Assembly: GCA_050084985.1 (NCBI GenBank)
Contig: JBITNC010000001.1
Location: 63,798,001-63,862,000, forward strand
Origin: Nageia nagi
Taxonomy: Eukaryota; Plantae; Pinophyta
DNA length: 64,000 nucleotides
Direction of reading: 5' to 3'
The number at the start of each line of letters is the position of its first letter. Position 1 is the first letter of the stretch. A program made the position numbers and the translations under genes. The notes beneath the pieces were generated by a model. The model was not told the origin of the DNA. It saw nothing but the letters and a program-made list of their open reading frames with translations, and did not search any database. This document shows, piece after piece, positions 50 to 58,110 of this stretch.

Positions 50-3000
50 GTTGATATTTAAACTATTGTCCAATTACTATCATTCATTTATTTGGATATT
101 TCTTTACACTTGTCAGCGTATTATTCCAGATTTCAATACTTCTGTAAAGATAATATATGTATTTTTTTCAATGGAATCGAAAAAGGTTATTGACAGAACA
201 GTGGAATGTTTTGAATTTGTTCTTTTTGAATTCTCATTCTTTAGTATTTTACAATTTAGTGCCAAGGCTTCTTATGGATGTTACATACTTGAGTGAGAAA
301 AAACCTAATTTAAAGCAACATTGGTTTACTTAGAAAAGCATTTTAGAGTTTCATTTTATCCTTGCTGCTTCATTTCCATTTACAGAGAGCAAGATTTTCA
401 TTTCTTTCCAGTACACATCTTAATTAATTTTGGCTCTTCTTCATCTAATTATAGAAGAGGAAGCCTTCAAAAGCGTCATCTGACATTTAATTAAATAATA
501 CTTTAATAAATAAAATTTCAAAAAGACGTTCTTAAATAAAACATTAATATTCCATATTATATATGAAATTAAATCTATGATCACGAACTGTCTGTCATTC
601 TTTTATTTTTTAACCATATAATGCTTTTCAAGAAATGATCAAACACTAAATTCTTTTATCCAAGTTACCTAGATCATAAATTTCACAAGTAAAACACAGG
701 TTTAGATGGGTGTTTTTATTGTTAACGTAGGCAGTAATTGTTTTAAAGATATAAAAGTTGTTTTTGCCACGGATGAGTTGCTATAGTTTTTGTTCATTGG
801 CCAGAAGTCAGCTTAAAAGAACCTTGCATATGATGATTGTAATGTCCCTATCTTGGACGCCCCATTTTATGATAGGAATTTTAGTTTTTAATTAGATTTT
901 ATAAAATTTAAATATGGCATGAGAAAATGGACATCCCATTTAGGGGAATAATATAATTTTATTTTATAAAATTAAGTTATGATTTTAGCATGTGTTCTCT
1001 TGGATGACTTAAGTGAAGGCATAATGGAAAATTATAACATTGAGTATAAAAGGAGAAATGAGCTCATTCTCATTCGTTCTTGGATTATTATTTCTCTTCT
1101 ATATTGTGGAGTGAGCTGCTATTCTAGCTAGCTTCCCATTCTCTTTTGCAGATGAAACCCTGTAGGAGATAGAGAATCATAGGATGAAAACCCTGTGATT
1201 CTCAAGGATCTAGGGACGAAAACCTTTGGGTTCTTGGAGAACAAGGACGAAAACCCTTGCTTCCTCTTGAAGTGAATTCATACTATGCTGAATTGGAGTT
1301 TGTGTTTCTTAGGTTTTGAAGGAGAGTATTCAGATTTGAGATCTGCATTGTTGGAGACTAGATCTGCATTGTTGGAGACTATATCTGCATTATTGGAGAC
1401 TAGATCTGCATTGTTAGACACCAGGTCTGTATTGTTGGAAACCAGATTTGTATTATTGGTACAAGATCTATATTATTCAGTCTTATATAGCTATTTTGAG
1501 ATTAGTACACTTCAGATTTTGTATCAGATTGGGACGTCCAACCCTAGGGAGCATTTGGAGGGCGTTTGAAGTATTTCACGCCAGAATTCAGTCTTCACCA
1601 TTGGGACATCCAGTTTTGGTGGGGATATCTGCATAGATCAGGACCTTGAAGGCTAGACCAACATTTTTATCATCAATTATGGGCTATTACTTGGACGGCC
1701 AGAGAGTGAAGGTTTAATTTGTTGATCTGAAAGTGAATTAAAGTATTTTTGGACTTGTACATTCCAGATTTATTGCTTCTGGAGAGACGCCCAGTATATA
1801 GGAGTCCAAATCTGCAATTTAGGGGTTTCTACATCAGATTTGAGTGTTCAACATCAGATTTGTGGCTCATAGATCAGACGTCCACCACCTGGTGATTGTG
1901 ATTTGCACTTGAAGGGTTTTAAAAACAGTTCTAATACATCCTTATTGGGACGTTCATCTTTGGAATTCATTTGAGTGTGATCTGCATCAGTATTTGAGTC
2001 AGCTTGACCCAACATCCAATTTGGGAACTAGAACTGAAGAGTTAAGTGTGTTTCTTCATCATTTCATTAGTGATCTGTTGTGCCCGCACAACACACCCCA
2101 AGATGTAGCATTTTTGGGACCCAATATTTTCTTGCAAAGGCATTGAGCAGCATTACCCAGGCATGATCAGACTACGGCCAGTGTAAGTATCCTTAAGGCC
2201 TAGATGATTGAGCACCAAGGAGACATGCATTCGGACTAATGCAAAGAGTTGAACTTAGCCAGTGGCCAAGTCAGGGCCTGCTCTCAAGCAACTTCTCATA
2301 GAATGGAGTCATGGATCATGACAACAACCAGACAGTGGAGTTTCAAGCAATTGGCTAGCAAGGTGAAAAAGATGCGTTTTGACAACATTTTAGTTCAGAA
2401 GAGTCAAGTTGACCAAAAAGGAGCATTTTTGCATAGGATCAGTCCACATGCACCAAGCGCAATACAAAGGCACATTTTCGCAAAATTTGAGCATAAAAGT
2501 GCCCAGATGATAGAATGAACACTTTTTTGTCAAGTTTGAGTCCTGGTCTAGTTAATACAATTAAGATGACGAAAATGCGCGTTTTTGTACAATTTGACCC
2601 CGAAAGGGGCATTTAGAATCAAAAGGTGCGTTTTTGTCACTTTTGAGCTTGGAGAGCCAGAAAAGGGTCAGTAACACGAAAAAGCGCATTTTGGTCACTT
2701 TTGAGCTCGGAGCCGGTCAGTATAGCAAAAAAGTGCGTTTTTTCACAATTTGAGCTCGGAAAGCTCGAAAATGACCAAAATTGCCAAGTTGAGCTCAAAA
2801 TGCTTAGAAACACTGGAAATGAGCGTTTTTGCATGTTTTGAGTCCGGAAAGGCCGGAAATGTAAGTTTTGAGCTCAAAATGCCGAAAATGATCTTTTTTT
2901 ACCATTCGAGCTTGGAATTGTTTGGAAATGTCGGAAATGGTCGAAATTCATACTTAGAGCTTGAAAATGCTGAAAATGGCCGGAAATGCACCGTTTGTGC

Positions 3001-6000
3001 TTGTAAAAGATGGTAAAGACCGGAAAGGATATCCCAGGATGAGTTAGAGAGCAAGTTTGAATGCCATTGGGGAGTAAAATAAAAAATGAGCTTTTTGGCG
3101 TTCGAAAAGCTTCAAGTTGACCCCGAAAAAGTGAGTTTTTTCAAAGTGCTCGGAATGAAAATCCGAGAGGTGTGATGCCAAATGACAAATCAAGGTCACT
3201 TTGCTCTTGGAAATGTCGAAAAAATCAACTTTTGACCCCCGAAGAGTTAGGGGGGAGTTTTCCAAGTTTTCCCTCACTTAATCAAATTTCGAAAAATGGC
3301 CTATTCTCTTCAAAACCTGCACCTACCTTTTAGGAGGTCCAAATTGATCTGAAATGGCAATTTTTGAGTTCAGGAGCGTAGAGATTGCGATTCTACATCA
3401 AATTGGTCTTTCAAGTTCGCAGTTTCGACAAGTTTTGCTCAATGAAAAGTGAGAAAAACAGGAAAATGAGCAAAAGGACAGCCAATGAGAATGCTCCAAA
3501 ATTTTGAAAATTCCAAAATTGCAAAAATGTAAATCCAAAGATGAGGTAGGGTGGCAAATCAAAAATTAAGCACTTCTCCTCTTGAAATTTTCGAAATTGG
3601 GTAAATTTTGACCTTCCTAGAGCTAGGTGCTGGTTTTGGGTGTTTTCCCTCATTTTTCAAAATCTTCAAAACACCCCAAACACCTCAAAACCTGCGCCTA
3701 CCCTTCTTGTGCCCCAAGAGTGAAACAAATTGGAAATTTTGACCTTCAAGGGGTATAGGATGGGATTCCACATAAGATTGATGATTTGAGTTTTTTAAAA
3801 AAATGAGATCTACCTCCTCAAATTATCAAAATTCGATTGGCCAATGAGAGAGCTCCAAATTTTTTCTAAATTTGAAGGAGACCAATATTGCCTCTTAAAA
3901 ATTTGCAAAAAAATTAATTTTTGCCCCTCCTTTTCCTAGGCAGCAGTTTTGGCATGTTTCCCATATTTTCCAAATTCTAAAAAAACATGCCAAGACTCCT
4001 AAAACTAGTGCCTAGCCGCCAAGCCTCCTTTTTTGCTCAAAAGTCAAAAAAATTATCCTAGAAGCATAGGAAATCCAATTTTGCATCTTTTTCAAGCTTC
4101 AAGTTTTTTGAAAAACATGGATCTACTCGCCTAAAATGACAAAATTTGGATCAGCCAATGGGAGAGCTTGAAAAGTTTTCAAAATTTTCAAAAAAATTTC
4201 AAAATCGAAATTGGAAAGAAAGGTACGATGCAAAATTCCAAGGAGATCAACATTGCCTCTTGCAACTGCAAAAAAAACAAATATACCCCCTCAAAAAGCT
4301 AAGCGGCAGTTTTGGCATGTTTCCCTCATTTCTAAATTTTCCAAAAACATGCCAAGCTCCTCAAAACCAGCGCCTAGCATGCAAGCCCCCTTTTTTGCCC
4401 AAATATGAAAAATTTGATCCTAGAAGCATGGGGAATCCAATTTTGCATCTTTTTTAAGTTTCAAGTTTTTCGAAAAAAGTGGATCTAACCCCTCAAAATG
4501 ACAAAATTTGGATCAGTCAATTTGAGAGCTACAAAATTTTCCAAAATTTTTAAAAAAATCTCAAAATCAAAATTGGAAAGCAAGGTAGGGTAGCAAATCC
4601 AAATGTGACCATCTTTGCCTCTTGCAAATTTGCCAAAAAAACAAGTTATTACCCTCCAAAAGGTAGGCGCTGGTTTTGCCTTCTTTCCCATGTTTTCTCC
4701 ACTTTCCCAATGTTGGGGATGAAAAGGCTAAGTTCAAAATGCAAATTTTTTGGTCTAAAAAGCTAGGATGTTGACATATGGCACTATTTGAGCTCTCAAA
4801 GTCTATAAATACAGCCATATCCCTCCATTTTTCTCACTTCTCATTTTTGCACCTTTATGCTGCCCAAATTTTTGAGAATTTGAGAGCCAAGTGAGAAAGA
4901 AAGCCATTTTTCACCTTTGGAGCATGATTTGAACACTTAACACTTTGGCCATTCACCCAAACTCCAATGAAATTCGAAATCCAACCATCCTCCATTCACA
5001 TGAACTTCGTTTTCCAAGTTTTTAAGGATTTTCATGTCAAAACCCCATTTTTCCAAACCTAAAACACTTGAAAATTTATTTTTTCAGAATTCAAGTTTGA
5101 TCACTTTTTTGGATACCCTTTATCCTTGTGATCAACTTTTATTTTCAGAAAAAAAACCAAAAAAAATATATATGATCCAAGATCTAAGTGCTCAAAATCC
5201 TCATTTCTTTAAAAACATTTCAAAGAAATTCAATTTGTTTTTCAAAAACTACAAAAATTATTTTTGAAGTCCGTTTTGGCCATTTCAAAGTTTGAAACAC
5301 CTTCCCCATCCATCTAAGGTGTTAGAACTAGATTCAGATATCATTCACCAATTTTGCCAAATTCCACCACTTTTTCCTGTTGAAAAAGTCAACTCTTTTG
5401 AGAAAAATTGAAAATTCTGCAAATTTCCTAAAATTTTGCCAAGGCATTCTCCTTTGAATTATCTTTTTATCATACCAAACTCACCCAAAAAAGCTTTGAA
5501 AGTTGCAAATCTTGACTTTTTTTGATGATGGTACACTTGGAGAAAAAAATGCCCAAAATGCCAATTTTTGGAAAAATTCTCTTAGCTTGCGTAGAAAGTG
5601 CCACAAGCTTCCCAAGACTCCTCTAACATTGTGTTGTTCTTTTAGACAGGAACAAGATGGCATTAGTTGCTCAGAATATCAAAGATAGAAAGCAGAAAAG
5701 GCTCACGATGGATAGTCCCATCACTCTTGAACATACGTCAGAGCCCATGATGCCTACTGCAAGAATCATTGACCAACTGAGTGAGATCGGAGATACAAAT
5801 TGTAACTCCCTTGATCCAATTAAAACTTTGATGAAAATACACACATTGGATCTAGATTTGATAGTGAAGGATACTTTGAAAACTTCCTTATCACTATCAA
5901 CTTCTATGGTGCCATTTGCCACCCCCTTCTCTGAGCTGTGCTACGAGCTAGGAAAGCATTGCGACTTTCGAAACCAAAGACTTCTTGATAGAAGAAACGA

Positions 6001-9000
6001 GAAAGGGCATTCGCTTGGAAGGGCGAAGGTCAATCATACAACGTGTAAGACTCCTTGAAATTCTACAAAGGGCTGAAACCACCGGCTGATTTGATCGGAG
6101 ATTGGTTGGTTGATGATCACAAGCATCTCACAGGGAGAGCCTTAGCAACGCCAAACAGAGGAGAGTTCTATCCAGTGGTCTTCCGAATAATATCAATGCT
6201 TTCCAGAGTGTTCGGACAAAAAGATGACACCAAATTCTGGTCAGAATTCGCGGGGTTTATATATCTAATTAGTAGCGGTAAAGGCATTAGATGGAGCAAA
6301 GTGATTAGTGATTCCTTGTCTCAGCAATTGAGACATATTCAGAAGAGCAAGAAATTCTACATGAACTCCTACCTGGTTTTCCTACTCCTTCATGGTAGGG
6401 AGAGGGTAACTTCAATTGCCAATATCCAATATCTGTATAACCCTACACATCCAGTGTGGGAAAATTACCCCTGGTTCTATGCTCATAATAAATGGAACAA
6501 CGAAAACTTAATGATGATGACTAATGGTTTTGAAGGCAAAATCTATGAAGAGATCTTGGGCAGAGCTAATGTATTCAAAATATCCAATGAAGCTGCTGCC
6601 ACTATCAGGGGACACATGGACTTCTTCATGGAGGACATAGAATTCACATATCTCAGAGTCTATGGCTCCAAAGAAGGTCCATACAAGCTACCCCTTTATG
6701 CAAGTGATCATCTCATCCTTATGGAATTCTCAAGACATTTGCTTAACGTACATGACAAGGTATGGGTAAAGAAGGTGGCCGCCAGCTACCAATTACCTCT
6801 CATCATTTGGGAATTATGAATGCACCACCTGGATTTAGATCGACATGATCAAACAAGAGCTGGCCAAGTATGAGTTCCCAATTGAAGTAGCTGCGGATAA
6901 CTATGATCCTGATGGAGTGATTGATGCATTTTTCCAAAAAACATGGAACGCATCATATCCACATCAGGTCTCCTGGTAGTATTGAAAGGTACAGGAACAT
7001 TCAGGATGCTTTGCAGGTTCAACAAATTCACATGGAGCTGAAGAAAGAATAAAAACAGCAAGAAGCCGAAGAAGCTGCTAGGTTAAGAGCCAATGCACAG
7101 GTCACTGTACCCCCGAGCCAAGGGTATATTATTTCTTTAATATCACCTTCAGTAATCCTAGCTCAAGGACAGAATGGGCAGTATGCTACCAACAACATCC
7201 TTGGACAAACTATTGAAACAACTGTCATGGGTATAAAGAATGCCATCCTGGACCTTAGAAAAGCAGGCTTAATCTCTTAACTACTCAAACACTTGCTGAA
7301 AAAGATAGATCTTCCACAAGGTTTGAATTGGAGTGGTATATGCCTGAATCAAAATCCCAGAACATCATCATCTAGTTTTGGCAAGTATGGGCTGAGCAGT
7401 TCGCCAGAGTCCGATGAAGAGATGGATTTTAGTGCAGTCATCGATATCAATATGGACAGAAATCAAGATATTGTCTTCGACAGGGTTGACATTGGTCATT
7501 CAGTAGAGATTCTTGACAAAGCTAGTCTCTCAATTGATGTGACTGTATAGCAAGCAGTAGGAGCAACCACCTCAAAATCCGCTTCTCAAAAACATGCATC
7601 GCAAATGCCACCATCGCAGAGGACTACAACAACATCAGTACAGAAGGGTATATCAAGACGTAGAGCAATGGCATCATCTTTAGGGGGAGATGATGGAAAT
7701 CAAGAGGATGAGGGAGAAAATGAAGAACAAAGAAGAAAGAGAAGACAAGTAGAGCATGATAGTGAGATCATCAAATACGGAGAGATGGTTCCCTATGGAA
7801 AACAACCCATGGAACCCCGCTTTGACATGGTTGCAGTGATGGCTAATTTGAGTTCAAATCACCCCTGTGAAGGAGAAGATTCCGAAGATGAAAATGAGGA
7901 ACTTCAGCAGATTGATACTCTTACCACCATTGTAGGAAAAATCACCTACAAGGACAAGTTGTACTTAAGAAAACACAAGGCTGGTATCGGAAAGTTTGCC
8001 CTTACAGTTGAAACAAAAGAAGCCCTAGTAGAGATTGTTGGCTCATTGGGAATGGAGCACAACATCATCACCAATGCACGGGCGTTAAGGGAATCCGGTA
8101 CCTTATTAAAGTTAGAGGTCTGAGAGTTGAAGAAGATAGTGGCGAGACAAGAAATGATTGACAAAGAAATCAAGGTTGCTAATTTGATGGTTGAAGACAT
8201 CAAAAAGCAGGTCGACTTAAACACTGGAATCACCGCTTTGAAACAAAGATGGACCAAGAACCTTATTGAGGCCATCAAAGCACTCCAGTCAAGTATGGTA
8301 AATCTTTATATTGAAGAGGAGGGGTCGCATTCTCAAGCAGAGAAAATAGACCAGTTAATTATCAGATGGAAGAGTGGGTACCCCACAATGTTTGACCTAC
8401 AGAGAAGGGCAACCCATCACCTATTCGTGCTCGATTTTTGCATTGATTGGTTCCAATTGTATGATTACCTATTTTACATCAAAGCAAAATCCACTTACTT
8501 CATATACACAAAAACTCAATTCAAAGCCATCATCAGTGAATAGGAAAGGGAATACGAATTCTAGGTACACTTGTTTGAAGAAAACGGTAGCATCAAGGAG
8601 TATATGACAGTGATGGCAATGATCCATGCCACTATTGCAGAACAATTGTGCCCCGAGGACCCACATAGCCTGAAGACAGGAAAACAAATGACAGGAGGGA
8701 TGAGATTGGCCGATTGGTGCAAGGAAATGGTCAAAAGCAATAAGGCCATCCTGGAGCACTTGTTATCAAACGAAGGAGCCCTCTAGACAATCCACCGTGC
8801 CATCAGGAATGTAGAAGCGTTCATGGGAGATGATTTTGAAGCCAAAATTGCTACAAACGTGCAAGTCATCTTTCCACAATCGCTAGAATAGAAAGGGGTC
8901 TATTTTGGCAAGTTTTTAATATGTAAGCCAAATATTGGCTAACTTAGTGGATTTCCACTAAGTTTTATTGTAATCTTAATTAGCAATTTCAATTAGCTTG

Positions 9001-12000
9001 TAAATAGTTTTACTATTGCAATTAGAGATTAGGGTTTCAATAGTGACTTTTAGGGTTTCCTAAAGTCTATAAATAAGAGATCAAGGGTCTCATTTCATTC
9101 AATGACTTCATTTTGAAGCAAAACACTTCAAGCTTGAAGAGAGAACTTTGTAAGAGAGTAGCAAATTGATGTATCCTTGCACAACTCTTTTTCAAATTAA
9201 TACAAAGTGGTTAAAGCAAAGATTTGAGTTTGAAACTTTTCATATTGGTGTTATTGATTGAGTCTTTGAGAGCACTCATAGTGGATTTGTGTACTTTCGT
9301 TTTATTCCTTTGAAAGCTCATGAGCTTTAGGGAAGTTATCTCTGAAAAACTTTAAAAAGTGCTTGAAGTCTACCTATGCTTGTTGCTTGATCCTTAACAT
9401 GCAAGTTGATTGGCTATTCTATGTCATATTTCTACTTTCATGACATCATGTTAGGTCCTTCATCCAAAACCATGATCCTTTCATTTTGAGATTTTCCATC
9501 ACCATCCATTTGACGTTCCTCCCCGCTCCTCTTTGAAGCATTTCGAATGTTGAGTTGTTTGCTTGCAATGTTGGATGAATTGGATGAAAAGTCCTTAATT
9601 GATTCGGAAGAGATCAACTTTTAGACACTTTCCCGTTATTGAACCTCGAACTCATAATCCAACCAAGTATCCATTTGTTTCTCCAAGGTGTTGTCCTTCA
9701 TCTTTTACCATTTTTTCTTTTATGCTTTATTTATACTTTCAAGCCCAAATACAATCATTAAGTCCACACACAAAAGTTCTGAACAAACTCTATACATCAA
9801 AGAATAAAACATCGTTGGTTAACAAACTACATACCTCTCATTCCATTCTATTGAGGCTGATTCCAAAGAGGGATACCGCACTTTCTTTCTATATATATCC
9901 CTATTCAGAAAACACACTTGACAAACAAGCATTACGCCATGACGTTGGAGTTGTTGGGCAAGGTGTTTCAACAAGAGCCTTGGAGTTACACAATCCTTTT
10001 CAACCGGGGGAATTGGTAACACATTCCCAACTATGTTGTTTGAGATCTCCTAAGTTTCTCCCGCGATATTCAGAGTGTCCCGCACGGGAAAGAAAAGTAT
10101 CCTAACATGATCTGCATTAGGTGTGAATTAGACTGGTTTATTTTAATTGCTGCCATTGTATTTTAGTGTGATTTATCAGACATTGCAATAAATATATCAG
10201 ATTTGCAATTCTTTTGTTGTGGATGTTTTGAGTTGTGTGATTTTCTAGTTAGAATTTGTGAAAACTTACAATTACAAATCAAGAAAGTTTTGGTTTTGAG
10301 CACAAAAATTTGCAGCTAGGATTTGCATTTTCAGTTTGGGGATATTTTATGTAACTGAATCCTCCTTTATAAGAGATTTTTACCTTTACTCATCTGCCAT
10401 CTGAAATGATCATTCAGCTCTTTTTGTTGGAGTATATCGAATTGGGTTCTAGAATGCAGTTTGCCTGCCTTCTGTGCTATTGGTCTTTCACTCCATAATT
10501 AGTATTTGAGCTGAGTTTGGAAATTTGGAATTCACTAAATTCACTAAATGTCATCAAATTTGGAAATTTTGATTTCAATATTTTGGCTTCTTTCTATACC
10601 ATGCTAAGATAAGTAAAACATATTTGTATTGATCTTATAATTGAAAGTTACTGTAAATTATTCCAATGAAGAAACTCTTTTATTTGGCATAAAATGGTCA
10701 GGTTTACATCTTGGTCTATTTAAAATGCGAAAACCATTTCCAATATCTCCGAGATGGGTTTAAAATTATGGCATTTCTTTGGACGTATTAATTTGAAGAT
10801 ACAAAAAAATAAGGTTCTGTTAGATCACAGTTTTGTTAAGAAGTTTAGGAGGCATCTATATGAATCCTTTCATTGGATATTTTTTAAGTTGAATTAAAAT
10901 AGTAAATACTCAATTTGATGTACAGTTTTTGAATTATACTTCAGGAAAGTGTTGCTGCAACCTTTGGAAATGGGGTATCTTCTGCATGCGTAGTGAATAT
11001 TGGTGCTCAAGTTATATCCATTTTGTGTACCGAGGCAAGTTCAACTATTGTTTATTAGATTTTGCTTTTCTTGAAACAGGCTATGCATGATGTTTAGTTT
11101 GCTGACTCAATAATAAAGGATAGAACAAACATTGTACATCCCTTATCAAGAAAATCCAATTCTGTTGGACTCTTCAAAATGAGGGATCAAAAATTTTAAA
11201 TGTATTGCTTTTGCCTATTTCCATGTTTGCTCACGATGCATGTGTATGTTTTCCTTGTAATTGTATTCCTGTTAATATTCAGGATGGAGTTGCAATGCCA
11301 ACAACAAGGGTTACACTCCCATTTGGTGGAGAGGTAGGACTACTTTTTTAAGTGATCATCATTGTAAGTAATAGAAAATCTGTTCTATTAACAAATTTCC
11401 TACAGACGATCTTGAATTCTTTTCAGATATGCTGGAAATTCTCTATTGATGAGTATTTGGTGTTGGATTTATCTTTACATTGTAACTTTTATAATTCTCA
11501 GACCATTATATCTTTGGTGTGCACACACGTATGCTGATTTGAACTTTACATAGACTGTTGCATACTCTAAAGCTTTTTTTAGGTTTTTTATTTTTTAATT
11601 GTACATAACTTTGATGGGATTAAAAAGGATCTACATCTTTGTGAAGAAACTATTGCATTTCCATGTACATATCTTCCTTAATAGGCCACACATGTCTTCG
11701 TTCATCATAACTCTGAACTTGACACCTCTATTATGGTTTATAAGTATCCTAAAGTGGACATTATCTTAGTGTGAACCGTGAATAGCTTTTGAGAACTCTG
11801 CATTTTAGTATCAATACTTATTATGTGCTTAGGCACCACATATACTGGTAGTTGCATTGTCAAAATTTGAACATCTGGTGATTCCATGGTGCAACTGAAG
11901 TTGTTATAAATAGAGGATAAAATTAGTTTACCCACCAGAACCTGATGTTCTGTTCTTTAGGGTATATGGACAAGGTAACACTTACGATACCTATGATGTT

Positions 12001-15000
12001 ATACAAGGTAGATGTGTGTGTCCTATATGTAATGTCCCCATTTTTAGCATTTCGCTCATTTTTGCATTGTAATGTATTTATTGGGCCACATGGAGTGGAA
12101 CGCCCCTCTCTCGAAGTTATTAGGAGTGATTTTTAGTAGTTAGGAGTGATTCTTGATATTTTTAGATAATAATGGAACTTTATTTATATTTGAATGTAAT
12201 AATGTACTTGGAGATCTGAAATTTGTAATCCTAAGAAAGAGTTAGAAGTCTCTAGGTGGGACGCCCAACTATAGGAGTATTTTATTACATTAATAGCGGT
12301 TATGAAATGATATTGAGGTTCCTTGGTTTCAGCGCTGATTTTTGGGATCTCAATGAGGAATTAGAAGCACAAGAGGGGATGTCCAACTCTAAAGAGGAGC
12401 CTCCCATTTTGAGGACATCTTTGGCTTCCATCATCTCAGTCACTTTTTGTGGACGAAAACCCATAGGAGAGAGATCTAGAGGATGGAAACGCTCTAAGAT
12501 CTAAGGGCTTAAGGATGAAAACCCTTGAGTTCTTCGGTGGTGGATCCAGTTGGGGTTCACACTTGCATTCCATCTTCATTCTAGAGCTTAGATCTGGGGG
12601 GTTGAGGGCCTAGAGTGAGATGCCCAGCTTGGGGAGGAGATATTTCAGCCTTTCATCCATTCTTCTCCCCTAGACTCAGATGTGCAATAGTTTGAACTGT
12701 TTAGAGTGTTGTTTGAGCATCATTTGTCCTCTCTGGGGGTGAACATGAGGGTGCTCTCCTCTCTGAGGAGGGATCTCTTTGGTCAATAAGGTGCGTGCCT
12801 ATAGAGTTGCTATTTTGGGAAAGAAGAATGTGATCTGTCAAGTCCTCAACGGAGCTTGGGGATCCTAAAGGTGCCTTTTGGTACAATGTTTGGGGAATAA
12901 AGAATCATCTCGCCATCTCCTATGAACTCCTCTAGTTGGAGAAGCTCGAAAAAAGGAAGTGATGCGGCGATCACATGTCGGGTGTGTTGAGTGCGAGCAA
13001 GAGATGCTTCCATATAAGGAAGGTCTCTTGGAGATGAAAAGCTAGACAACGAGCCATGTGCATCTCGAAAGAGAAAGTAATATCGACCTTGGATCTCATA
13101 GTAGGTTGAGCACTGGAAAATGAAGTGGTCCTCAAACTCTATCTCAAGTGAGCAAAGGCGACAAGCACGTAAATCACGGGCTAGATGATACTCTATCTTG
13201 ATCCTCAATTGATGTGGTCAAACTCAAAACTATCCTAAGAATGTCCTCAAATTAGGAGGAAGATGTAAACTGAAATATCCTGGTGGGAGGATCAAACCAT
13301 TGTCGAGTTGTAGATACCGTTGTGCATAATGTACCAACTTTGGGGACAGTGGCTGAGGGGATGAGACCCATGTGATTTATATATAGACCTTGTAGATGGT
13401 ATCTTGGACCTTTGATAATGAGTTTGTTGGAGAACTGATTGAACTCTCCTGTGGTGCAGGACGAATATCCAAAGAGAAACCAAATCTCTGGAGTATCTCA
13501 CTAACCTTAGCAAACTAACATCTATGGCAACCTTGTGCGGCTAGATCCATTGAAGAAGCCAAAGCCCTTGAAGAGAGTCTCCTTGTGTTGCCTTGATGAC
13601 AAGAAAGGTGATGCAAGCGATGGAGAAAGAGGACTATGGAAGTGAGGGCTCACACCTGAAGAGGTTGGCATCCGAACTCTGCCAACATGATAAGGTGGGG
13701 TACCATCCTCTTGCTCTGAATGGAGCAGAGAAATTTGGCACTTGCTTGTGAAGAGGATTCTAGCATAAAAGGTAAAAATTACTAGCAATAACTATATTAT
13801 AAATCCATGTAGAAAATATTGTGGAAATGTGAGATCAAACATAGCAATAATCGTAAACTATGACAATGGGAGACTAACATTTGTAGAGGCAACCTCTCAA
13901 AATATGTAAACTCAATATAAAATATGTCTTTCATTTGCCCTAAGAGCTTGCATTCTTTGCCTTTTCTAAGTGTGATTCAAATTAGCATATTCTTCTTGCA
14001 TATGTTATGTGTTCCCTATATTCCCTTACATATTATTCCTTACATGCAATTTTTCTTTAGATCTATATTCCCTTACAATAATATGTGATATGTATCCACT
14101 CTCATACATTATGAATGATTTGTGCTCACTTGTATTTTACCTTCCAAATTTACATAGATTGAATACATAACACATTTCAAATCTCCATGGTTGTCACAAG
14201 TAAGCAATAGTTTGCCTCAAAACTCTTTTGCTTCTCCTTCTCCTTGGCCTCATTATTATCATTAGACAAGGTCTTTCAATCCTTTGGAGGAAAGTAATGA
14301 TTTCCCACAAGTTTTCATAAGCCTTGGGACCTCAATAGAATTTGCATATTGATTCTCCAATAATCATAGTCTTCATCATGTAACTTAGGAAGAGGAATAT
14401 TTTGCACTTCAATGGAGTCTTGTATTGCTCTCAAATTAGTAAAAACAATCATGATACATACACATAGCAACACCACACACCAAAAAATGAAAAAAGAATT
14501 TACAATATATTACATTTTGGGTACGTCCCTTAAATTTTCTATGCTAGTTGGATTCTCATGAAGTCTTCAGTAACTCCCACATGTCTCTTGGCTTGCTTGA
14601 AGTTGGGAAGACATTGACTTTTTATTTTATTTCATTGTCTATCTTTTGAATAAGAAATAAACATGTCAATTTTTTCATGAAGTGATAAACACCTCATGGT
14701 TTAGTTTTTTGCAAGATTTATTTTATAGCATTTATTTGTTTTGTCCACTTGAGGGAAAAACCCATGTATGGACCATTTCTTGCAAATAGAGGGTCCAATT
14801 TGTTGTTATGTTTTTCTCTTTTCATCCAAAACATGCACAAGACTTGGAGAAAACAACGTTACTTGTTGTCGCCTGAAAGGATTGGTTACCCCAAGCGCTC
14901 CCATGGAATATGGACTAGGGCACAATGGATAGAGATGCATGTTGGTAATTGTATATGAGGGAAATACACTGTCGAAATTCGTTTCACAAAGAGAAAAGAT

Positions 15001-18000
15001 TGCAAAGGTGAATGAAAGTGAAGAAAGATCACAAATGCAAGGATAAATGCATAGGAATATGAATAATGAACTTATGAAGGTATCACCAGTGATGCAATGT
15101 CTCGACAGGTCATCTTTGGATTCTTTAAGAAAATGTATCCACTTATCAAGTTGGGCATCAAATAGCAATAGGCTCAAGTTACTACCAAACGAGAGCAGGA
15201 AGCTGTAGGGTCTGTGATGGAAGAATCAATGGAATGGGATGAAGGGAAATGACCAACATGTGAATACATAAATTCTAACTGAATGACATAGAGATAAGCT
15301 ATACGCCACAGAATACATCCACTTGCATACAAATCATACAATGAACAATTTAAACCGCTTCGAAAGATATTCAGCTATCTTCCCTTAAAACTTGTAGGTT
15401 TCAAAGAGAATGCACTTAAGCAGTAAAAATTACTCGAATCGGCAAGAAAATCTTACAGGATAATATGCATGATCCCACAAATGATAATCTTCATAGCATT
15501 TACTTTACAAAACCATTCCAAAAAGAAATAAACTCACAATGACATTCAATAGCACGAACAGAAGCATTTCTTTCTTGATTGCAAAGCTCTCAATATGATA
15601 TTCAACATGAAACATAGATATGACAATCTGCAACCTTGATATGCATAGAATCCCTTATGTAGCAAATCCTTATGCAAACCATGTGCAAAAATCCTCAGTT
15701 TCAGCAGATGCAACAATCTTATGCAATCAATATTATGCAAAAATCCCCTTCTAAATGGCCCGAGTAAAATATAAATAGCCCACTAGAAGTGCTGCCCTAA
15801 AGGCATCAAATCTGATATGGTGTGCTCACATGCAACACACATACCAATGCAAAAACTATCTTTTACAAAAAACTATGCAAGTGGTATTTAAAAAGCTGAC
15901 AAAATATAAATGCCAAAACTGTAATGTATTTAATCTACCTCTAATCTATGCAAACGAGAAATCAGATATGCACTAAATGTTTGACATCTGAATTGGAGGA
16001 GCAAAACTTCATCCTTGTACCAGTCAGATCCATAAATGAGTTTGACATATTTAATTTAGAGGGAGCAAAACTTCATCCCTACACTAGTCAAATCAAGTAA
16101 ATGAAGTCTAAATACAACAACCACCACCATCAATATGCATTAAACATAGAAAAGATAATCGCAGATAGAATCTACGAGTGGATCAAATCTAGGCTAGATC
16201 TGATCCGGTACCGGCGGAGTTCCACTCTGTGGTGAGACTGTATAACTCAATGGGCTCTTCTAAGAAAACATGACCTTCTGTACTCCCTTGGAAACCATAC
16301 CAACAATGCTACCATTCTGCCTGAAGTAGTCTCCAATCTGCCTAGATGTAGCCTGCATCTGAAATCTCCAGATGACCATCTGCCTCTCATGATGAATGGG
16401 TTGCCTTGCCTTTAGTAGGTTGAGATCCTTGAACTCAAGATGTTCCTGGATTAGATTTTGAGCCTCTGCCAACACCTCTTCCTTCCTACGCATGCTGTTA
16501 TCTTTCCCTTGAAACGTTAGCTAGTTTACATATTTGCTCATTTGTTCTTCTAACTTCTTTCTCAAAGGTATCTTGACTTTCAAAACAACATTACACTTCT
16601 CCACTGCATGCTTCAGCTAGTCGTGCTAATACAAGAATTCATGGCAATAGACTAATTTCTTCGGTCTGTTAGCAAAGATCTGCTACAAATGGGTGACGGT
16701 AGGGAGATGACCATCCAACTTCTCGAGGAGGGCTATTATTTGGAACTTCAACTCCCGGATCTCAACACCTTCCTCCAGGAGGCTATATACTTGAGAAGAT
16801 AACTTCTCAATAGTCTCCATCATCTTCAATTGGTCCTTCATCAATTCCCATCTTGCATGGAACAAGACTTGCTTTTTCAATTCTATAGGGGTGGTGCTAA
16901 CAATTTGGAACTCCTTAATGATTTTCTTGCTAGCTGCGAGTTCCTTCTTGAGTCTTTTCACCACCTTCTTGGCTTCATAGCCTTCTTGTTCCATGATAGC
17001 AAAATTCTGAGTAACAATCTGCTTCTTGGTTGTTAGACCTAACTTAACATGCATCTTGAATGTTTCTATCATACAGTCCTCGGGTCTTTGCGGATGTTTC
17101 TCCTTGGATTAACAATGGTTGATGGAGATCTCCTTTCTTGAAGTAGAAACAAAAGTATCTAAGTGAGCTGTGTTCATGCTCACTTTCTCACCATTGGAGA
17201 CCTCCTCTTTTTCATTTTTAGACCTCAAGTTCTGATCAATTTCTTCATCGTGAGCTGTGTTCATGCTTAAGGCTCTTAGGCAAGCATCTAAGTCAAGATT
17301 TGGGTGTTTGATTGCTGGCTTGGGAGGGAGCCTCTGCACAACACTCGACCTTTATTGATCTTCTCGACTTCCTTTGTGAGAGTGGCTTGAACAAGGGCAA
17401 CTTGCTTACCCTGATGCTCATCCTGCTTTCTCTTCTTCTTTTGTTCTTCGGTCTTTCCTTCATATTCTTCATCTCCACCATCACCACCTAATGATATAAC
17501 TTTCTTGCATGGTTGAGGTGATCTTTCATGGCCGGTCCTCTTCAAAGAGGGCTTCTGGGAAGACGAGGGTGACCTCTTTCCATGTTCGGTAGGATAGAGT
17601 TTGGAAGAACCCACCTCTTTGGCATATTTCACTCCAACTATATGGACTTCTTCATCATAAATCCCAATGTCTATGAACAGGTCATCATCATTGTCCAGGA
17701 GAGTTTCAATTTTCGTATCATAAGTGCGGAAGAACCTACAGCTACATTCTCTTGACAGGGGTACTCTTCATCAACAACATCATTTGCATCATCATCATCT
17801 TCTCCTTCTTTCTCTTCACCATAAATCTCTTCATTGTTTTCTTGACTCTTTGTCTCTTCTTTTGAGCCTTCTTCAGTGCAGCCAGGTTTTTCATCACTTT
17901 CTTCATTAGAAGAAGTGGAGTGTTCGGAAGAACTGGAACTTGGTTGTAATGGGGGAACTTGCTCTCTACATCTAGAAGGACAAGTGGGTCTTGGTGGAGT

Positions 18001-21000
18001 TTTTTCAACAGGGGAATCATTGGCATAGGCTTCCTCCAGTATGCTTAAGGGGATATCATAGTAACCAGTGTCTCTAAGATCAGCCACCACCTGCTGGCTT
18101 TTCTTTGCTACATTAGCCACCACACTGTGTTTACTGGATCCTATTGAGGCATGCTTTTTTGATGCTCCTTATCTTGTGAGCAAAATGTAACTCAAAGCAA
18201 AATCAGCAAATTCGATTACAATAACCTTGATGTCAAGCCTAGGGCATCATCTACAAGTATATACCATACAAAACTGCCAATGTCTAAGCTGGGGTTACAT
18301 GATCAAGCATTTACAACATCCATACACCAACATTTAGCATATCACAGTGGATATCACTTTACAATGCCAATGTCTGGCTCATGCATGCACAAATAAGCAA
18401 TGGTAACCCAATGAATGCACAAGAGTAATGAAGACAATACAAATATGCGATCCAATGCCCTTTTGGCTATACGAAAGATATAGAACGATGATGAATACAA
18501 TACTAGGCCTAAAAGGGCTAACGTTGGCCTCTTAGGAGCCAACTAAGGCAATATAATGTATCTCTCACCATTGGAATAATATCAGAACCCTGGGATAGTA
18601 TTCCTCCTTTGAATAAGAATCCTCTCCATCGAAGGAGTCCTCATCAAACTTTGGATAACCACCCAAGGTAGAAGCAATACCTCGGAATACCACCGGATGG
18701 GCAAAGGTGCTACACTAGTGCCGCAGACAGACAGGATCCTTTAGCCTGAATGCCCTCTAAACGCTGCGCCTATGAAGGTTGCTTAGCACCGCTAAGACTT
18801 GCTGTCCTCTGGATGATATGACAGTAATAATGATCAAGTATATCCAGTAATGAGGCTCCAATGTCTATTTATACATTTTCTTTGTTCGGATCTCACCTAG
18901 GAGTCATCACCTGTCGCCTCTAATCCAACGTTGGCCTCCTGGAGGCTCGAAATACCCAACGTAGGTGTCTAAAGGTAGACATGCCAATGTGGGGGCCGGG
19001 GGTGCATTAAGTGCCAACGTGTGAGCCTAGGAGTGCCACGCCTGCCCATGTGGGTCAAGGGGGAAAACATGGGGTCTAGGTGTCATGCTGGGCCAATATG
19101 GGGGTATGGGAGCCTTCCCAAGCCTAGTACAAGCATATAAGTGGCTGGCCATCACCTCAATGTACAATAGACCTTGGGATTCCCACAATCATGTTTCGGG
19201 ATCTCTAACTATGACAAATACACCTAATCTAACCTTAAGAGAGAGACATCCCACTTGGGGCTCACAGTGGGGTCTATTGACCCATTAAATCTCCTATCCT
19301 AAGTTACAAACATGAAAGTGTAATGCATAAATAAAGTATATTACAAGAGAAACCTATTGGTTCCCATGATTAATTTCGACCATGCAAGGGGGATGTCACA
19401 TGTCTTTTTCCCTATGGGAAGCAAGGATGTCTTGACTTATGGAGGTGCAACGCTTGCAGAAGGAGGCGACGTTTTGATCCTCAACAAGACCTCTTTAGGT
19501 CTTGCTTTTACAGTTCTAGGTCTTTGAGGTGCCTTCTCTACTTGAAGGGGAGCCTTATTTATGCTCAAAAGAGCATCTATCTTCGCTATCTCCTCATCTC
19601 ACACATTTCTGAACTTTTCTGCATTCCCTAAAGATTTGTGCTTGTAAACAACAGGTTTCTGGAATGCGGTGTTGAAGAAATGGGCGATAACACCTTTAGG
19701 ATCATAGTTTCTAGCTACTATCTCCTTGAAGAAGACATACTGCTGCAGCTCCTTCATGCTATTAGCCTCATCCTAGGTTTGGCAAACATAACTTGCAATT
19801 GAGATGGGCAAGTTAATGGTTGTGTCCTTCTGTCTCCACACTCGTTCCTTCAAAAATAGTAACTGTTTGGAAAATTCCATGAGAATCATTCTGTCATTGG
19901 CATATCTAGGTAGGATTAGGGGTTGCTCTTCAGAGCCATAGACCTTGATGTAAGTATGATCAGCATACTGCAGGTAGAAGTCTACGTGTACACTAATGGC
20001 TTGAACAAAAGCATTAGAGATCCTCTTCATTACTGACTTACCTTTGATTTCCTTATAAATGGCATATTCCCACTCGTCATTTCTCTCATAGAAATGCTTG
20101 AATTTGTTATGGTACCACCACTTTAGATGAATTTGCCACACTGGGATGCCTTTCTTTTCTAGATATCCTTCATCTTCAAGCTCCTTTGACCTGAACTTGC
20201 CATGCAACAACAGGTACACAAGATAAGAGTTCATGTAGAACCTTCTGGAAGAGCCAAAGTAGGCTAGCTGGTGGCGCAAGGCATCATTGATTACCCTGCT
20301 CCATCGGATAGCTCTCCCTGAGTTGATCATGGCGATAAATCCAATGAACTATTTCCAATACTTGGAGTCATTTTCCTGACCTATGACTCTGGACAACAAA
20401 GTGATCATCTTAGTGATCGTGGAAAGGAACTCTTCCCTACGAGCACTCATCAATCTCTAGCCTTTGATACCCTGGTAGTCTTCACATAACCATCTTCTAA
20501 TATAATCTCCAGGTCGGGCAATGGAGTCATGGAATTCTTTCGAATGGGCCAGTGTATGATCATCTCCATATCTTCTCCAGCCAAAAGTGGCTTCAATCCC
20601 TTCTGGAGAGAAATCCATGATCATGTTCCCTTCAGTGTCCAAGAGAACTCTCTTGTCATACTTGCAACGTTTGGAAACTTCATAACACAACTCATGAAAT
20701 GAAACAACATAAGGCATCATAGTGGCATTGAATAGCCCACAAGAATGGATGATTTCATTCGACAGATCCTTCTTGCTGATGGAGGCAGTGGATGCTATGG
20801 TCTGGATGAGGTCAACATTTCCCCAATCTGATTCACCAATGAAGATGAATCTCCCCTTAAACTTGGCTTCAGGGAGCACTGGTTTTTCTCTTTCTTGGAA
20901 CCCTATTTGACTTTCCCTCAAGAATCTCTCTATCTGGTCATCTGTGACATGTCTTTCAAAATGTTGCCCATGAATCTTCCTGGCCTTGGTTGGGGAGGCC

Positions 21001-24000
21001 TCACCTTAGAAGTCATCTTCAAATATGAAAAATGTGTAGAAAACTAGAAAAAAAGTTGGAATTCTAGTTGGAAATGCCCTAAGAATGGTCAAGCACCAAA
21101 TTGGATGTGTGTAGAACCAGACGTGCTGGTTTAGGCTGCAAAATGTCCTGCAGAAATGAGCTGGGACTGCCCTCTTATAGAAGCTGCATGGAGGGTTTAT
21201 GCATGGCACATTGTATGTATGCCACCTGTCTTCTTAATCTTTTGACTCTTAGCTTCTTCAATACCTAGTCAATCTCAGCTCATAGTCCCCAAGGCGCATG
21301 GATTTGGGTACGTGCTTTTTCACTGCTTGAAAAACATGCAAAAGGTCTCTTGATGGGCAAACACATCACTTAGTCAAATCTAGGGCAACAATATTCCATT
21401 TGAAAGGCCATATCATCACTTCATGCTAGGGCGCACGGATTTAGGCATGTGCTTTTTCATGTCTTGCAAAGCATGTGCCTCAAATTTCATGCATAAACAA
21501 AAGGAGAATGGATTGCACATGATAGTGTATACTTAGCCAAATTCCTGGATTTGGACCTAGGCACACCGTTTTGAATGAGTCCTTCAAGCACTAGTGAGAA
21601 AATATGCGCATAGGTCAATTTAGGGCAAGCCTTATCAGATAAATGTAAGTGAATTACAAAAAACAGATCTTGAGATCCAACTCACCCCCTTAAAGAAATG
21701 GCTATTGGTAGTTCAGACGCCTCCTCAAACCTTTATTTCTCCTAGGTGCACCAATTTAGATGAGTCCTTAAGCATGTCCCGGAAATAGTGCGAATGGGAG
21801 ACTTAGTCCAAAATGAAATGAAGTTTAAAATGATACAAGGGATGACTTCATATGTATAACCTTCAAGTGTCCCAAGTGTCACCTTTTGGTTGGTTCCAAA
21901 TGATGTCAAATAATGGAGCCAGGATGTGCACGTTTTAGAGTACATGTAAAAGCATGTCCCAAAATGCATGGGCCAACCAACTTTAGTGCATCAAAAGGAC
22001 TTAGTCAATTTCATCATCCTTGAAAACCCTTGCAACTTGGTTGCACCCTTTTGGAGGGGTGCAAAAAGCATGTCCCAAAATCCTTGCGCCTACCAAAGTA
22101 GACACCTTAAAAAATACTTAACTCAAAAATGCTCCAGAATTTTGGGCGCACCTTTTTAGAAGAGTGAAAAAGCATGTACCAAAAAACATGCAGCTAGGCC
22201 TCTTTTACAGAATTTTATACTTAGTCAAAAAAATGCGTCTGGGCCAGGACGTCTAGAAGCTGGCGCACCAATTTGAGTGAGTGCCTAAGCATGTCCCAAA
22301 ATCCTTGCGCCTACCAAAGTAGACACCTTAAAAAATACTTAAAAATGCTCCAGAATTTTGGGCGCACCTTTTTAGAAGAGTGAAAAAGCATGTACCAAAA
22401 AACATGCAGCTAGGCCTCTTTTACAGAATTTTATACTTAGTCAAAAAAATGCGTCTGGGCCAGGACGTATAGAAGCTGGTGCACCAATTTGAGTGAGTGC
22501 CTAAGCATGCTCCAAAAACCATGCGCATAGTCCTGTGGCACACTCTTGAATGCAATGAATTAATAATTAATGAAAATGACCTTAAAAATCATCGTCCAAA
22601 ATAGGGTGCACCATTTGAGGGATGTGCGTTTCTGGACTTAGCGCAACACAATGCTCCGAAATCAACCAAACAAATTGAATGCTAAAGCTAACTTTCCTTT
22701 TATAGACTTGCTCAAGTGGATAGGTGTCATGCAACAATTGGTGTGAGTGAAGGTCCAATGCGTGTGAACACACTTGTCCTTTCTTATTGAACGTCCAGAA
22801 TCCTATACTTTAGCCAAAATTTCCCACATGAAGGAGGGCGCATCGATTTGGGTACTTGCAAAAGCATGTTCCCGAAACCATGCGCTCAACCAATTCAACC
22901 ATTTTTTCTTCAAAATTGGCTAAGTGTTGAAAGTACTCCATCTGCCAAGGCGCACTGATCTGGGTACGTGCAAAAAGCATGCCCCTCAAAGCATGCGTTG
23001 ATGCTGTTTTGACATTTTCCTCTAGAATTTGCTAAGTGTCAAGTTACCTCATTCGCCAGGGTGCATTGTTTTTGCAACATGCAAAAGCTTGTCCCTCAAA
23101 GCATGCGCTTAGGCATAGAACATGCTGATTTACTTCAAAATGACTAGAATGACCCTCAATAATGGGATGCAGTGGAGGGGATGCAATTCACAAAATGACT
23201 AAGTGAAAATGGGCATGAATGATGCAGTTTAAACCCGAAAATGGGTCCTTAAAAATTGCAAATTTTTGGAGGGTGTTGTGTAGGCACAACACAATTGATG
23301 GAGGTTATTGATTGTCCATCTTTGAGGTGTCTCATATGTTTGAAAAGAGCATTGTCCATGGTATGATGTGATATGTGCCATTGTGAGGACCTCTTATGCA
23401 TTTTTATCAGTAGAAGTGTGAAGAATAATTTTGTTTGGATCTAGATAGCTATGGAGAGATTGTTGTTGTGGGACTTGGTTGTGATATTTTCTTGATGTCT
23501 TGAATCTCCTCATTGTTTGGTTTTGAATAGTCTAGGATTATTTGAGATGTGTTAGAAACCTAATCCTTAGTGATTAAAGTTATTTTTATTGTATTAGTTT
23601 TAGAAGTCATAGTTGTGATATTATATTTAAAGTATATGCATTTTTAGGTTTAACTATTGATGTAATTCCAAGAGTCATATGAAGTTGAATATGGAGAGTT
23701 TTTAGGGAGTCTAAGAGTTACCTTGTGCTTGGGTCTTTGCTTCAAATTCCAAACACTTGCGCTTGGGTCTTTGCTTCAAATTCCAAACACTTAGCCAATT
23801 TCAACCCCAGGCCAAAATGCCTAGGACTAGGCACATGACTTGAGAGGTGTGCTTTTCATGCACAGGAAATGATGCGACTAGGGTCTGGCACACCTCCTCA
23901 GACAAGAAATTTCAATAATGACTAAAAAATGCAAACCTGACATAGGTTGCACGTTTTGGAGAACGTGCTTTTTCTCCTTTGACTCCATGCAATGCTCCAA

Positions 24001-54873: not shown

Positions 54874-55224
54874 GTAAGTATTCCATCTTATAATTATACA
54901 AGTATAGTAATTCAACAACTGCATTACAAATTACTTTGGCATATCCTCTTTTCCTGTTGTGTTGTGGGACTGTTTTTGACTTCAAAAATACAAGGCTTCT
55001 ATTGTGAGATCATGAAAACATAAAGACTGTCATATTGCTTGGTTTCTCTTTCTCTTTCCCTGTCATGCACAAAAACCTTTCATAGAAATGATAATGAATT
55101 TTTTGATTCTTAATCAGTCAAAAACTTGTGGATGAAAGGAGGAACCCATCTTTTGATCCAGCTCACATTTCTATCTATCTCCACTAATATTCTTGTTTTG
55201 ACAATATAGCTTATGATTCCATCA

Positions 55225-58088: not shown

Positions 58089-58093
58089 TAAAT

Positions 58094-58110
58094 TGGCGCT
58101 AGAAGGAGGG
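58094..58110 (+). other. Primer binding site, tRNA-Asn(GUU)
   Basis: TGGCGCTAGAAGGAGGG is complementary to the plant tRNA-Asn 3' end (CCCTCCTTCTAGCG-CCA, from recall). Confidence 0.8.

Follow-up and report, generated by a model that had tools for sequence, protein, structure and literature searches.

The unit at 14801..23291 on the minus strand (element B), in the 64,000-nucleotide stretch of Nageia nagi DNA analysed here (the window), has TG...CA ends and appears to be a solo LTR of a TatII-type Ty3/gypsy family with an ORF in its U3. That a gene of a Tat family lay within the LTR is likely. The ORF copies in B and in its sister unit, element A, are pseudogenes today. The explanation of the whole that on balance we favour is a TatII solo LTR whose U3 gene encoded a VANC/PMD-like DNA-binding protein, which would act against silencing through the element's own array.

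Boundaries, decay and past selection

The edges of element B read CAATT/TGTTG...CAACA/CAATT. The 5-bp target site duplication (TSD) CAATT can be read directly on the left (14796..14800) and on the right (23292..23296), which confirms an earlier sequence-only reading of an insertion on the opposite strand with its own perfect TSD. The 5′ end forms an 18-nt terminal hairpin (23274..23291, minus strand), also noted in that reading; it is family-wide by its recurrence in the window at 2076 (element A), 24675 and 35051. Contigs from public sequencing runs stop at 23291, the 5′ edge of the element, and cover the whole unit (30 of 30 bins in four of four runs), and for this reason we regard it as a repeat family. 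The public-run search gave five runs with element B, each with a small share, and no RNA run was among those listed as carrying it. A nested solo LTR (1.2 kb) of an unrelated chromovirus-type family is located at 18175..19400 on the minus strand (TSD TATCT/TGTCT). Runs X2 and X3 have contigs that connect its two flanks directly, and the relative P0026 reads in frame across its position; it can thus be removed as an insert, as had been proposed, and the element is then 7.26 kb long.

The ORF (16194..21016, minus strand), interrupted by the nested insert, runs sense to the LTR and has about 1,200 codons. It had been read as open from 21016 to 16190. The ATG at 21016 holds, backed by relatives that start at the same place; the open frame does not, with 11–13 in-frame stops across four segments (2 of 13 at segment edges) and three or more frame changes (near 21005, 17750 and 17290), and the end is a TAG at 16196-16194. 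An N-terminal globular domain (20028..20849) and an acidic, low-complexity linker (17288..18174, D+E 0.23 in the first part) are followed by a C-terminal helical, probably coiled-coil region (16194..17285), all on the minus strand; this last region is homologous to A 8007-8813 and its heptad signal is weak. The highest 19-residue hydropathy is 1.19 in the N-terminal domain and 0.79 in the C-terminal region. An env-like ORF of the Athila/SIRE type was rejected for B, as hydropathy (maximum 1.19) predicts no transmembrane helix; the Atlas lead to ATHILA ORF1 reached only 0.86.

Element A (2076..10107, plus strand, TSD TGATC) has the same layout, with a homologous ORF at about 5657-8890. The two units had been described as little alike in DNA with proteins that nevertheless align, and this is what we find: blastn gives one 83-bp patch and the 5′ end, yet the proteins align with 40% identity over 269 aa and 20% over 270 aa. 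The C-terminal regions score 123, where the highest of 1000 shuffles reaches 77. Over 246 codon pairs, identity is 0.58, 0.64 and 0.38 at codon positions 1, 2 and 3, and 6 of 32 four-fold sites are identical (chance 0.25). A dN/dS near 1, named beforehand as the sign against a maintained gene, is not what the pairwise comparison gives; dN is 0.40–0.53 and dS is saturated, so that the ratio has no exact value (LWL85 0.275, ML 0.02; NG86 returns no dS). Because the ORFs keep 43% protein identity despite synonymous sites at chance level, the ORF was, judged by its codons, under long purifying selection in the past. The old, maintained architecture suggested earlier therefore describes the past of the family (selection, same layout) and not the present copy B, a pseudogene.

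Relatives of the B ORF number 213 at E ≤ 0.001; the named ones are from Taxus and one is intact (1010 aa). An alignment search gave 41 protein relatives, none with Pfam domains and some on 11–31 kb contigs, and a word-indexed protein search gave one match at near length and none among longer proteins. No Pfam family matches B at E ≤ 1, including PF10536 and PF09331, which we take to be the accession of DUF1985. Twenty of 23 family proteins have no Pfam match and the rest only unrelated weak ones; PMD, DUF1985, Transposase_28/32 and Athila do not occur among the 25 of 39 families listed for 123 members. The Atlas returned four leads for P0004, all under 0.9, and none for P0027. A sequence search of the PDB with the family profile gave nothing at E ≤ 10, and a protein scan of viral contigs found no relative.

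Predicted fold, U3 array and putative role

The AlphaFold model of B (pLDDT 81.4, pTM 0.80) matches VANC21, an anti-silencing protein that binds DNA, over model residues 53-326, with Z 7.0 for 9lnk (rmsd 4.8, 239 aligned; next row 2.7) and Z 7.2 for 9lnj (rmsd 4.7, 231 aligned). The model of the relative P0036 (pLDDT 88.8) matches 9lnk with Z 7.3 (rmsd 4.2, 209 aligned; next 3.9 over 51 residues). VANC21 is the sole match at Z ≥ 5 of both models among 48,161 chains; it is a moderate match, with Z 7.0–7.3 below Z 8 and within the range that the tool describes as typical for unexplained models, and the two models have most alignment rows in common. Sequence identity between the models and VANC21 is 6–10%, and Foldseek against the PDB and BFVD gave nothing at E ≤ 0.001. 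On the strength of the models, the N-terminal domain probably has a VANC/PMD-like fold. PMD and the VANC domain are reported as related folds, and the targets of VANC are short motifs repeated in tandem within its own transposon (PMC5735166). The likeness of fold in itself shows no function, since host PMD proteins are reported active in silencing (PMC5418596).

The U3 motif array of B (about 21289..23114, minus strand) contains approximately 11 direct units of about 55 nt and two inverted, ORF-proximal ones, with a 216-bp tandem duplication at 22066-22529. It had been taken for an inverted-repeat array; the array is real, but its copies are mostly direct and only the ORF-proximal units are inverted. 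The motif AAAGCATG has nine copies in the U3 of B and none in A, D, E or F, all six window occurrences of ACTTAGTC are inside the U3 of B, and AAAGACAA is found nine times in E and in none of the others. The arrays are located in non-coding DNA, carry member-specific 8-mers and differ between relatives; as protein targets they are putative. Because the VANC21 fold match occurs together with member-specific U3 arrays, the data suggest a VANC-like system in an LTR retrotransposon.

A TATA-like site at 21173..21181 (minus strand), 165 nt upstream of the ATG and, like its counterparts in other members, with a CTCATTT motif after it, may be an internal promoter. It agrees with the site placed near 21180 by the earlier reading; there is a better TATA match besides, ending at 22705 inside the array (22697..22705, minus strand), which is also present in element C. 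The second site, expected near 15780, is found at 15770..15778 (minus strand), about 980 nt from the 3′ end, and may be the LTR promoter. A site 0.85–1.04 kb from the 3′ end is shared by A, B, D, E and F, and the single TATA-like site of LTR E (about 915 nt from its 3′ end) has the same position.

We propose that B would be the remnant of recombination between the two LTRs, each of 7.3 kb, of a TatII-type Ty3/gypsy element from a gymnosperm, with the U3 of B as the carrier of a once-selected accessory gene. The ORF would have been transcribed from the TATA-like site at 21181 and copied during reverse transcription as a piece of the 3′ U3, as would happen with a PPT located upstream of an extra ORF on the 3′ side. 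The protein, with a predicted VANC/PMD-like DNA-binding fold and a coiled coil, would bind the member-specific array upstream of its own gene, and this binding would keep the element from being silenced. Such putative anti-silencing at the own array is a possibility that we put forward tentatively. Rather doubtful is the wider proposal of a gymnosperm Tat system of VANC-type, sequence-specific anti-silencing contained wholly in a 7–8-kb LTR (gene, promoter and bound array), in which subfamilies would co-evolve array and protein, ORF-less LTRs would be served in trans and solo LTRs would leave the module in introns once the rest of the element is deleted.

The in-LTR gene and its fold could have been kept for another job, as a chromatin tether, an integration-targeting or an RNA-handling factor, with the arrays as ordinary U3 enhancer repeats. 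Tat lineages III–V do contain extra ORFs with a PMD and a coiled coil whose function is unexplained (PMC4408406), long non-chromovirus elements often have tandem arrays (PMC6317226), and arrays are present as well in members D and E, which have no ORF. The array of B, with CpG/CHG o/e of 0.40/0.47 versus 0.23–0.50 and 0.27–0.90 in other element parts, shows no CpG/CHG enrichment or retention over those parts and so no footprint of methylation protection. We nonetheless consider another job unlikely, as VANC21, the one solved structure matched, is that of a sequence-specific DNA binder in complex with its target, and as the motifs of the arrays change from member to member in the manner of VANC targets.

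If the anti-silencing proposal is true, this would be the first LTR retrotransposon family with such a system, and the system would be older than the dicot VANCs; the literature on VANC structure and evolution may already report such folds in retrotransposons. The PMD-type extra ORFs of Tat elements, so far unexplained, would also gain a testable job. For more than ten years the extra ORFs in plant Ty3/gypsy elements have lacked an explanation, and the conifer giga-genomes, built of such elements, are heavily methylated. The repeat would have combined a defence against silencing by the host with the DNA motifs likely bound, and solo-LTR formation would leave the gene in place. A VANC-like fold beside member-specific arrays makes binding to the own array directly testable. 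Fragments of the ORF enter proteomes as hypothetical genes, as the Taxus entries illustrate.

Probable solo LTR and alternative origins

The comparison that identifies B as an LTR is with element E. Its 5′ LTR and PBS (55572..58110, plus strand) consist of an ORF-less LTR of 2.5 kb (55572-58088) and a PBS (58094-58110, starting 5 nt after the LTR end) that presumably reads as tRNA-Asn, followed by gag-aRH-RT-RH. The aRH (RVT_3, about 61120-61345, E-value 6.5e-10) lies between a protease motif, read by eye, and RT (RVT_1 at 62223+); RT_RNaseH_2 follows at about 62820+. PMC6317226 gives tRNA-Asp or tRNA-Asn as the expected TatII PBS types, aRH before RT as the hallmark of TatI/II and TatII as the gymnosperm clade. 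The first 80 nt of B match E with z 9.8 (none of 300 shuffles as high) and the 3′ non-coding part scores 83, where none of 60 shuffles exceeds 50; the last 200 nt alone match weakly (z 1.8, 22/300 shuffles). Among the window segments tested, the 14 best matches to the 3′ part of B are all in family members A, D, E and F. The probable R-U5 of B (14801..15550, minus strand) is homologous to the half of LTR E that adjoins the PBS and contains the shared 3′ motif reported earlier (14878-14892). Because the ends and the 3′ 1 kb of B are homologous to this TatII-type 5′ LTR in the same window, we read B as a solo LTR with the ORF in U3. The ends, the TSD and the homology to a PBS-abutting LTR thus bear out the earlier description of a gene-carrying solo LTR; that it is solo is what we infer.

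No second LTR start, PBS or convincing PPT was found inside B, including the segment from the ORF end to the 3′ terminus, where a hidden LTR start and PPT had been named as evidence against the reading. The contig ends and sequence collections scanned gave no paired B-type LTRs around an internal region, and E, the only PBS-bearing member, has no ORF in its LTR. None of the family 5′ ends seen (six in the window, two in L002) is preceded by a PPT, and the five loose ends listed beyond 23291, from a longer set with 29 further rows, have none in common; contigs that overlap the edge by fewer than 31 nt may be missing from that set. One contig past the 5′ end of B has a purine tract 7 nt away. 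A metagenome scan gave one locus, found twice, in which no PPT precedes the LTR start. Three viral-contig loci matching the PBS and hairpin patterns were all unrelated.

A and B might instead be single-unit non-autonomous elements with LTR ends around a gene, moved by Tat integrase without a paired-LTR intermediate and perhaps aided by the hairpin. Only one of the six family members in the window is neither unpaired nor truncated, none of the 5′ ends seen follows a PPT, and the hairpin is perfect in A, B and C and weaker in the PBS-bearing E. B, however, has no PBS or PPT for priming reverse transcription, no terminal inverted repeat above 5 bp and no transposase match, and very long LTRs favour solo formation. 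The ORF-less D and the short-ORF F (which has the two-TATA layout) behave alike, as solo LTRs would. We judge a single-unit origin improbable. A TIR DNA transposon was also rejected, the inverted termini being only TGTTG/CAACA (5 bp) and no transposase family or fold being found.

Very improbable is a deletion derivative, in which a once-internal extra ORF was fused to parts of two LTRs: the known Tat extra ORFs are internal (PMC4408406, PMC6317226) and 21315-21647 is weakly self-similar to the last 330 nt of B (score 53, 0/60 first shuffles), but 53 is also reached by 3 and 10 of 300 shuffles and by 7 of 146 real segments, so that a hidden U5 there was rejected, no second LTR start follows the ORF, and the layout of A (synonymous sites saturated versus B) and the two-TATA layout of F would need repeated identical deletions. 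The layout common to A and B, with no internal LTR boundary, upholds the earlier view that B is not a one-off deletion artefact.

Comparison with known systems

Accessory genes in or overlapping U3 and duplicated with the LTR, like the B ORF, are known in MMTV (sag) and HIV (nef); unlike B, these are animal retroviruses, with genes of 200–320 codons encoding unrelated proteins.

The extra ORFs of TatIII/Ogre elements (PMC4408406, PMC5418596) resemble that of B in combining a globular domain (PMD), a linker and a coiled coil in a Tat element. They are internal (3′ antisense or between the 5′ LTR and gag) and match PF10536, whereas the B ORF is sense, has no PF10536 match and is located between the LTR 5′ end and R-U5; we therefore rejected this type for B.

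VANC of the VANDAL Mutator-like DNA transposons (PMC5735166; 9lnk, 9lnj) has the fold predicted for the N-terminal domain of B, together with a coiled coil and a variable linker, and its gene likewise lies next to tandem motif arrays that vary from one related element to another. VANC, described as dicot-specific, belongs to DNA transposons, whereas B is probably part of a gymnosperm LTR retrotransposon, with 6–10% identity to VANC and no Pfam link, and with putative DNA binding and demethylation.

The TatII Ty3/gypsy elements of gymnosperms (PMC6317226; lineage II in PMC4408406) share with B the TG...CA ends, a 5-bp TSD and an LTR homologous to that of an element with aRH upstream of RT. In contrast to the TatII elements surveyed, the LTRs of A and B are 7.3–8.0 kb long with an ORF of about 1,200 codons inside U3. 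The consulted sections of neither paper place an ORF in the LTR, and the supplement of the survey may show otherwise; PMC4408406 reports no extra ORFs in Tat lineage II. The survey searched LTRs up to 6 kb and gives a maximum of 'about 5 kb' (PMC6317226), so full-length copies with LTRs of 7–8 kb may be missed. Its 27 TatII elements have forward extra ORFs on the 5′ side in 23% and on the 3′ side in 26%, and this would be the pairing expected of an ORF present in both LTRs.

Boundaries and LTR identity of unit B

Unit B occupies 14801–23291 on the minus strand, with TG...CA ends between two copies of CAATT, and so has the opposite orientation and the TSD of its own that the sequence-only reading had claimed. 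Contigs from four public DNA runs cover 30 of 30 bins of B and end at 23291, its outer edge, so B is a repeat with a boundary there. A solo LTR of 1,226 bp (18175–19400; TSD TATCT/TGTCT) is nested inside B; it is bridged by joining contigs in two public DNA runs, and the alignment of P0026, a database protein related to the ORF of B, stays in frame on either side. Without this insert, B measures 7.26 kb.

Six members in the window share a 5′ end: A (2076–10107; TSD TGATC), B, C, D, E, and F. Five of these ends were compared, and 10 of 10 pairs beat shuffles (≤1/300 reaching the score). The decisive member for naming the family ends as TatII-type LTR ends is E. Its 5′ LTR of 2.5 kb (55572–58088) is followed 5 nt beyond by a PBS (58094–58110) and then by gag-aRH-RT-RH, with the RVT_3-type (aRH) domain upstream of RT and RH. 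In the accessible text of PMC6317226 and PMC10508981, this order defines TatI/II, and the gymnosperm clade is TatII. The post-ORF part of B scores 83 against E (≤50 in 60 shuffles), 106 against F, and 125 against A, and its 14 best-matching window segments are all family members; taken by themselves, the last 200 nt show a weak match to E (score reached by 22/300 shuffles). The TATA-like sites claimed near 21180 and 15780 are present at 21181 and 15770–15778 (minus strand), with an additional one at 22705, and the claimed shared 3′ motif lies at 14878–14892 (minus strand). In A, B, D, E, and F, the second TATA-like site lies 0.85–1.04 kb short of the 3′ terminus; given this constant position, the 3′ segment can be read as R-U5, which puts the ORF in U3. 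The array described exists, but it consists mainly of direct repeats, only two units being inverted.

A hidden LTR start with a PPT between the ORF end and the 3′ terminus was not found. B contains no second hairpin start, its first 80 nt are unmatched in its 3′ part (score reached by 14/60 shuffles), its single purine tract has no LTR start behind it, and no PBS-like site follows a CA anywhere in non-nested B. A weak similarity of 21315–21647 to the 3′ end was rejected, as 7 of 146 real segments score equally high. End homology, the boundary test, and selection on the ORF support the initial reading of B as a real, gene-carrying solo LTR: B is probably a TatII LTR with an accessory gene in U3, whose product probably has a PMD/VANC fold.

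The ORF of B and its predicted protein

The decayed ORF (minus strand, about 1,200 codons) starts at 21016, as proposed and as backed by relatives with the same starting point, and ends at 16194 rather than 16190. It is not open: 13 in-frame stops fall over four segments (two of them at segment edges), with at least three frame changes. The proteins of A and B do align, with 43% identity over 246 codon pairs and codon-position identities of 0.58, 0.64, and 0.38 (positions 1, 2, and 3). Four-fold sites are identical at 6 of 32, codons differ at 60 of 97 common residues, dN is 0.40–0.53 against saturated dS, and the C-terminal regions align with a score of 123 (≤77 in 1000 shuffles). The codon-position pattern, the few identical four-fold sites, the saturated dS, and the aligning C-termini show that the protein was conserved while the A and B subfamilies diverged; the ORF of the B copy decayed after insertion.

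A profile search of 1.84 billion representatives gave 213 relatives (E ≤ 0.001), the named ones being Taxus hypothetical proteins. One is an intact 1010-aa protein with the domain-linker-coil layout of B, whose C-terminal part gives no significant alignment to that of B. Neither Pfam nor PDB sequences match B or the family, and no transmembrane helix is predicted in the protein of B. The first 500 residues were modelled with confidence (pLDDT 81.4, pTM 0.80). Foldseek found no match for this model or for that of a 24%-identical relative. Full alignment of the B model with 48,161 chains gave one match at Z ≥ 5, VANC21 (an anti-silencing protein of VANDAL DNA transposons) on target DNA, with 239 residues aligned at Z 7.0 and rmsd 4.8, ahead of a next match at 2.7; a second VANC21 crystal form gives Z 7.2. 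The relative's model also matches VANC21 (Z 7.3, rmsd 4.2, 209 residues; runner-up 3.9 over 51 residues). The Z values are middling and the two models share alignment rows; the match stands alone among the chains compared and spans the domain. A VANC21-like fold fits prior knowledge, since the available portions of the sources describe a fold common to PMD and the VANC domain (bioRxiv 10.1101/2024.09.27.615353; PMC13547354), PMD-A encoded by gypsy elements (PMC5418596), and PMD or PMD plus coiled-coil extra ORFs in Tat lineages III–V (PMC4408406).

Other members and the host gene

The 5′ LTR of the TatII-type E region (55572–63700) is ORF-less and carries a palindromic array; the coding region stops abruptly near 63710, and the 3′ LTR is absent from the window. 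F (42597–51847; TSD GATTC; own length about 3.3 kb) has two TATA-like sites (50039 and 51001) flanking a short decayed ORF (50213–50720, about 170 codons) that the family profile does not match. Nested in the array of F is a chromovirus-type gypsy element (43147–49085; LTRs 90.5% identical). D (about 32218 to 35051, minus strand, 2.8 kb) resembles A in its 5′ end and R-U5 but lacks an ORF, and its ~185-bp array is a different one; CTTTC lies at its right, and the left duplication is degraded. C (23780–24675, minus strand, 5′ end 24675) has a B-like 5′ end and array and is then truncated, with no 3′ end found; it is flanked at 23549 and 25403 by LTR-like starts belonging to a short Copia-like remnant, and a purine tract precedes the start at 25403. 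Outside the window, L002:2582–4241 has an A-type LTR start, a short array, a TATA-like site, and then an oppositely oriented A-type ORF piece (3358–4041), with no LTR end between start and piece; this is an inversion, a rearranged copy, or a misassembly.

Exon 10945–11034 matches Arp8-type actin-related proteins (E 3.8e-05). Together with the Taxus relatives of the ORF, this places the family copies probably in introns of a gymnosperm gene, which we take to be plant ARP9. Its exons (also 11282–11333, 29821–29952, 30623–30712, 40594–40847, and 54823–54875) span >45 kb, and all elements probably lie within its introns. The solo LTRs at 18175–19400, 25448–26663 (81% identical to each other), and 36391–37595 form one 1.2-kb family; the chromovirus-type element at 43147 has related LTRs. 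Stretches 839–2070 and 12030–14512, adjoining A and B, respectively, start with TGTAATGTCCC and resemble pieces of LTRs from a further gypsy family.

Possible role and comparison with known elements

VANC proteins, in the accessible text of PMC5735166, bind short motifs; these accumulate in tandem within the transposon that encodes the protein and vary among relatives. The array motifs here are member-specific, each U3 having its own set. The TATA-like site at 21181 would have driven transcription of the ORF, whose product would bind the array of its own subfamily and keep the LTR promoter from silencing. The gene, copied within the 3′ U3, would be duplicated into both LTRs, and recombination between two such long LTRs would have left B as a solo LTR. 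Against this mechanism, arrays also occur in D and E, which have no ORF (these could have been served in trans), the array of B shows no CpG/CHG retention, and neither a paired ORF-carrying element nor a PPT junction was found among run-contig ends or in viral-contig and metagenome scans. A VANC-type anti-silencing module packed inside the LTR is a tentative and rather doubtful proposal.

MMTV sag and HIV nef are precedents for an accessory gene in or overlapping U3. The full-text literature covered, with incomplete coverage of key VANC papers, describes no plant in-LTR ORF and no VANC-like LTR-retrotransposon protein; the portions of PMC13468544, PMC13477047, and PMC2633040 available hold no information on LTR ORFs, and PMC4408406, as far as its accessible text goes, gives lineage II no extra ORFs. 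According to the accessible part of PMC6317226, 23% of 27 TatII elements have forward extra ORFs on the 5′ side and 26% on the 3′ side, and its supplement lists no domain match for TatII; that these similar shares pair up hints that some lie in LTRs. B, at 7.26 kb, exceeds the 6-kb limit on LTR length of that survey. The review PMC7264820, in the part available, assigns extra ORFs to the internal region.
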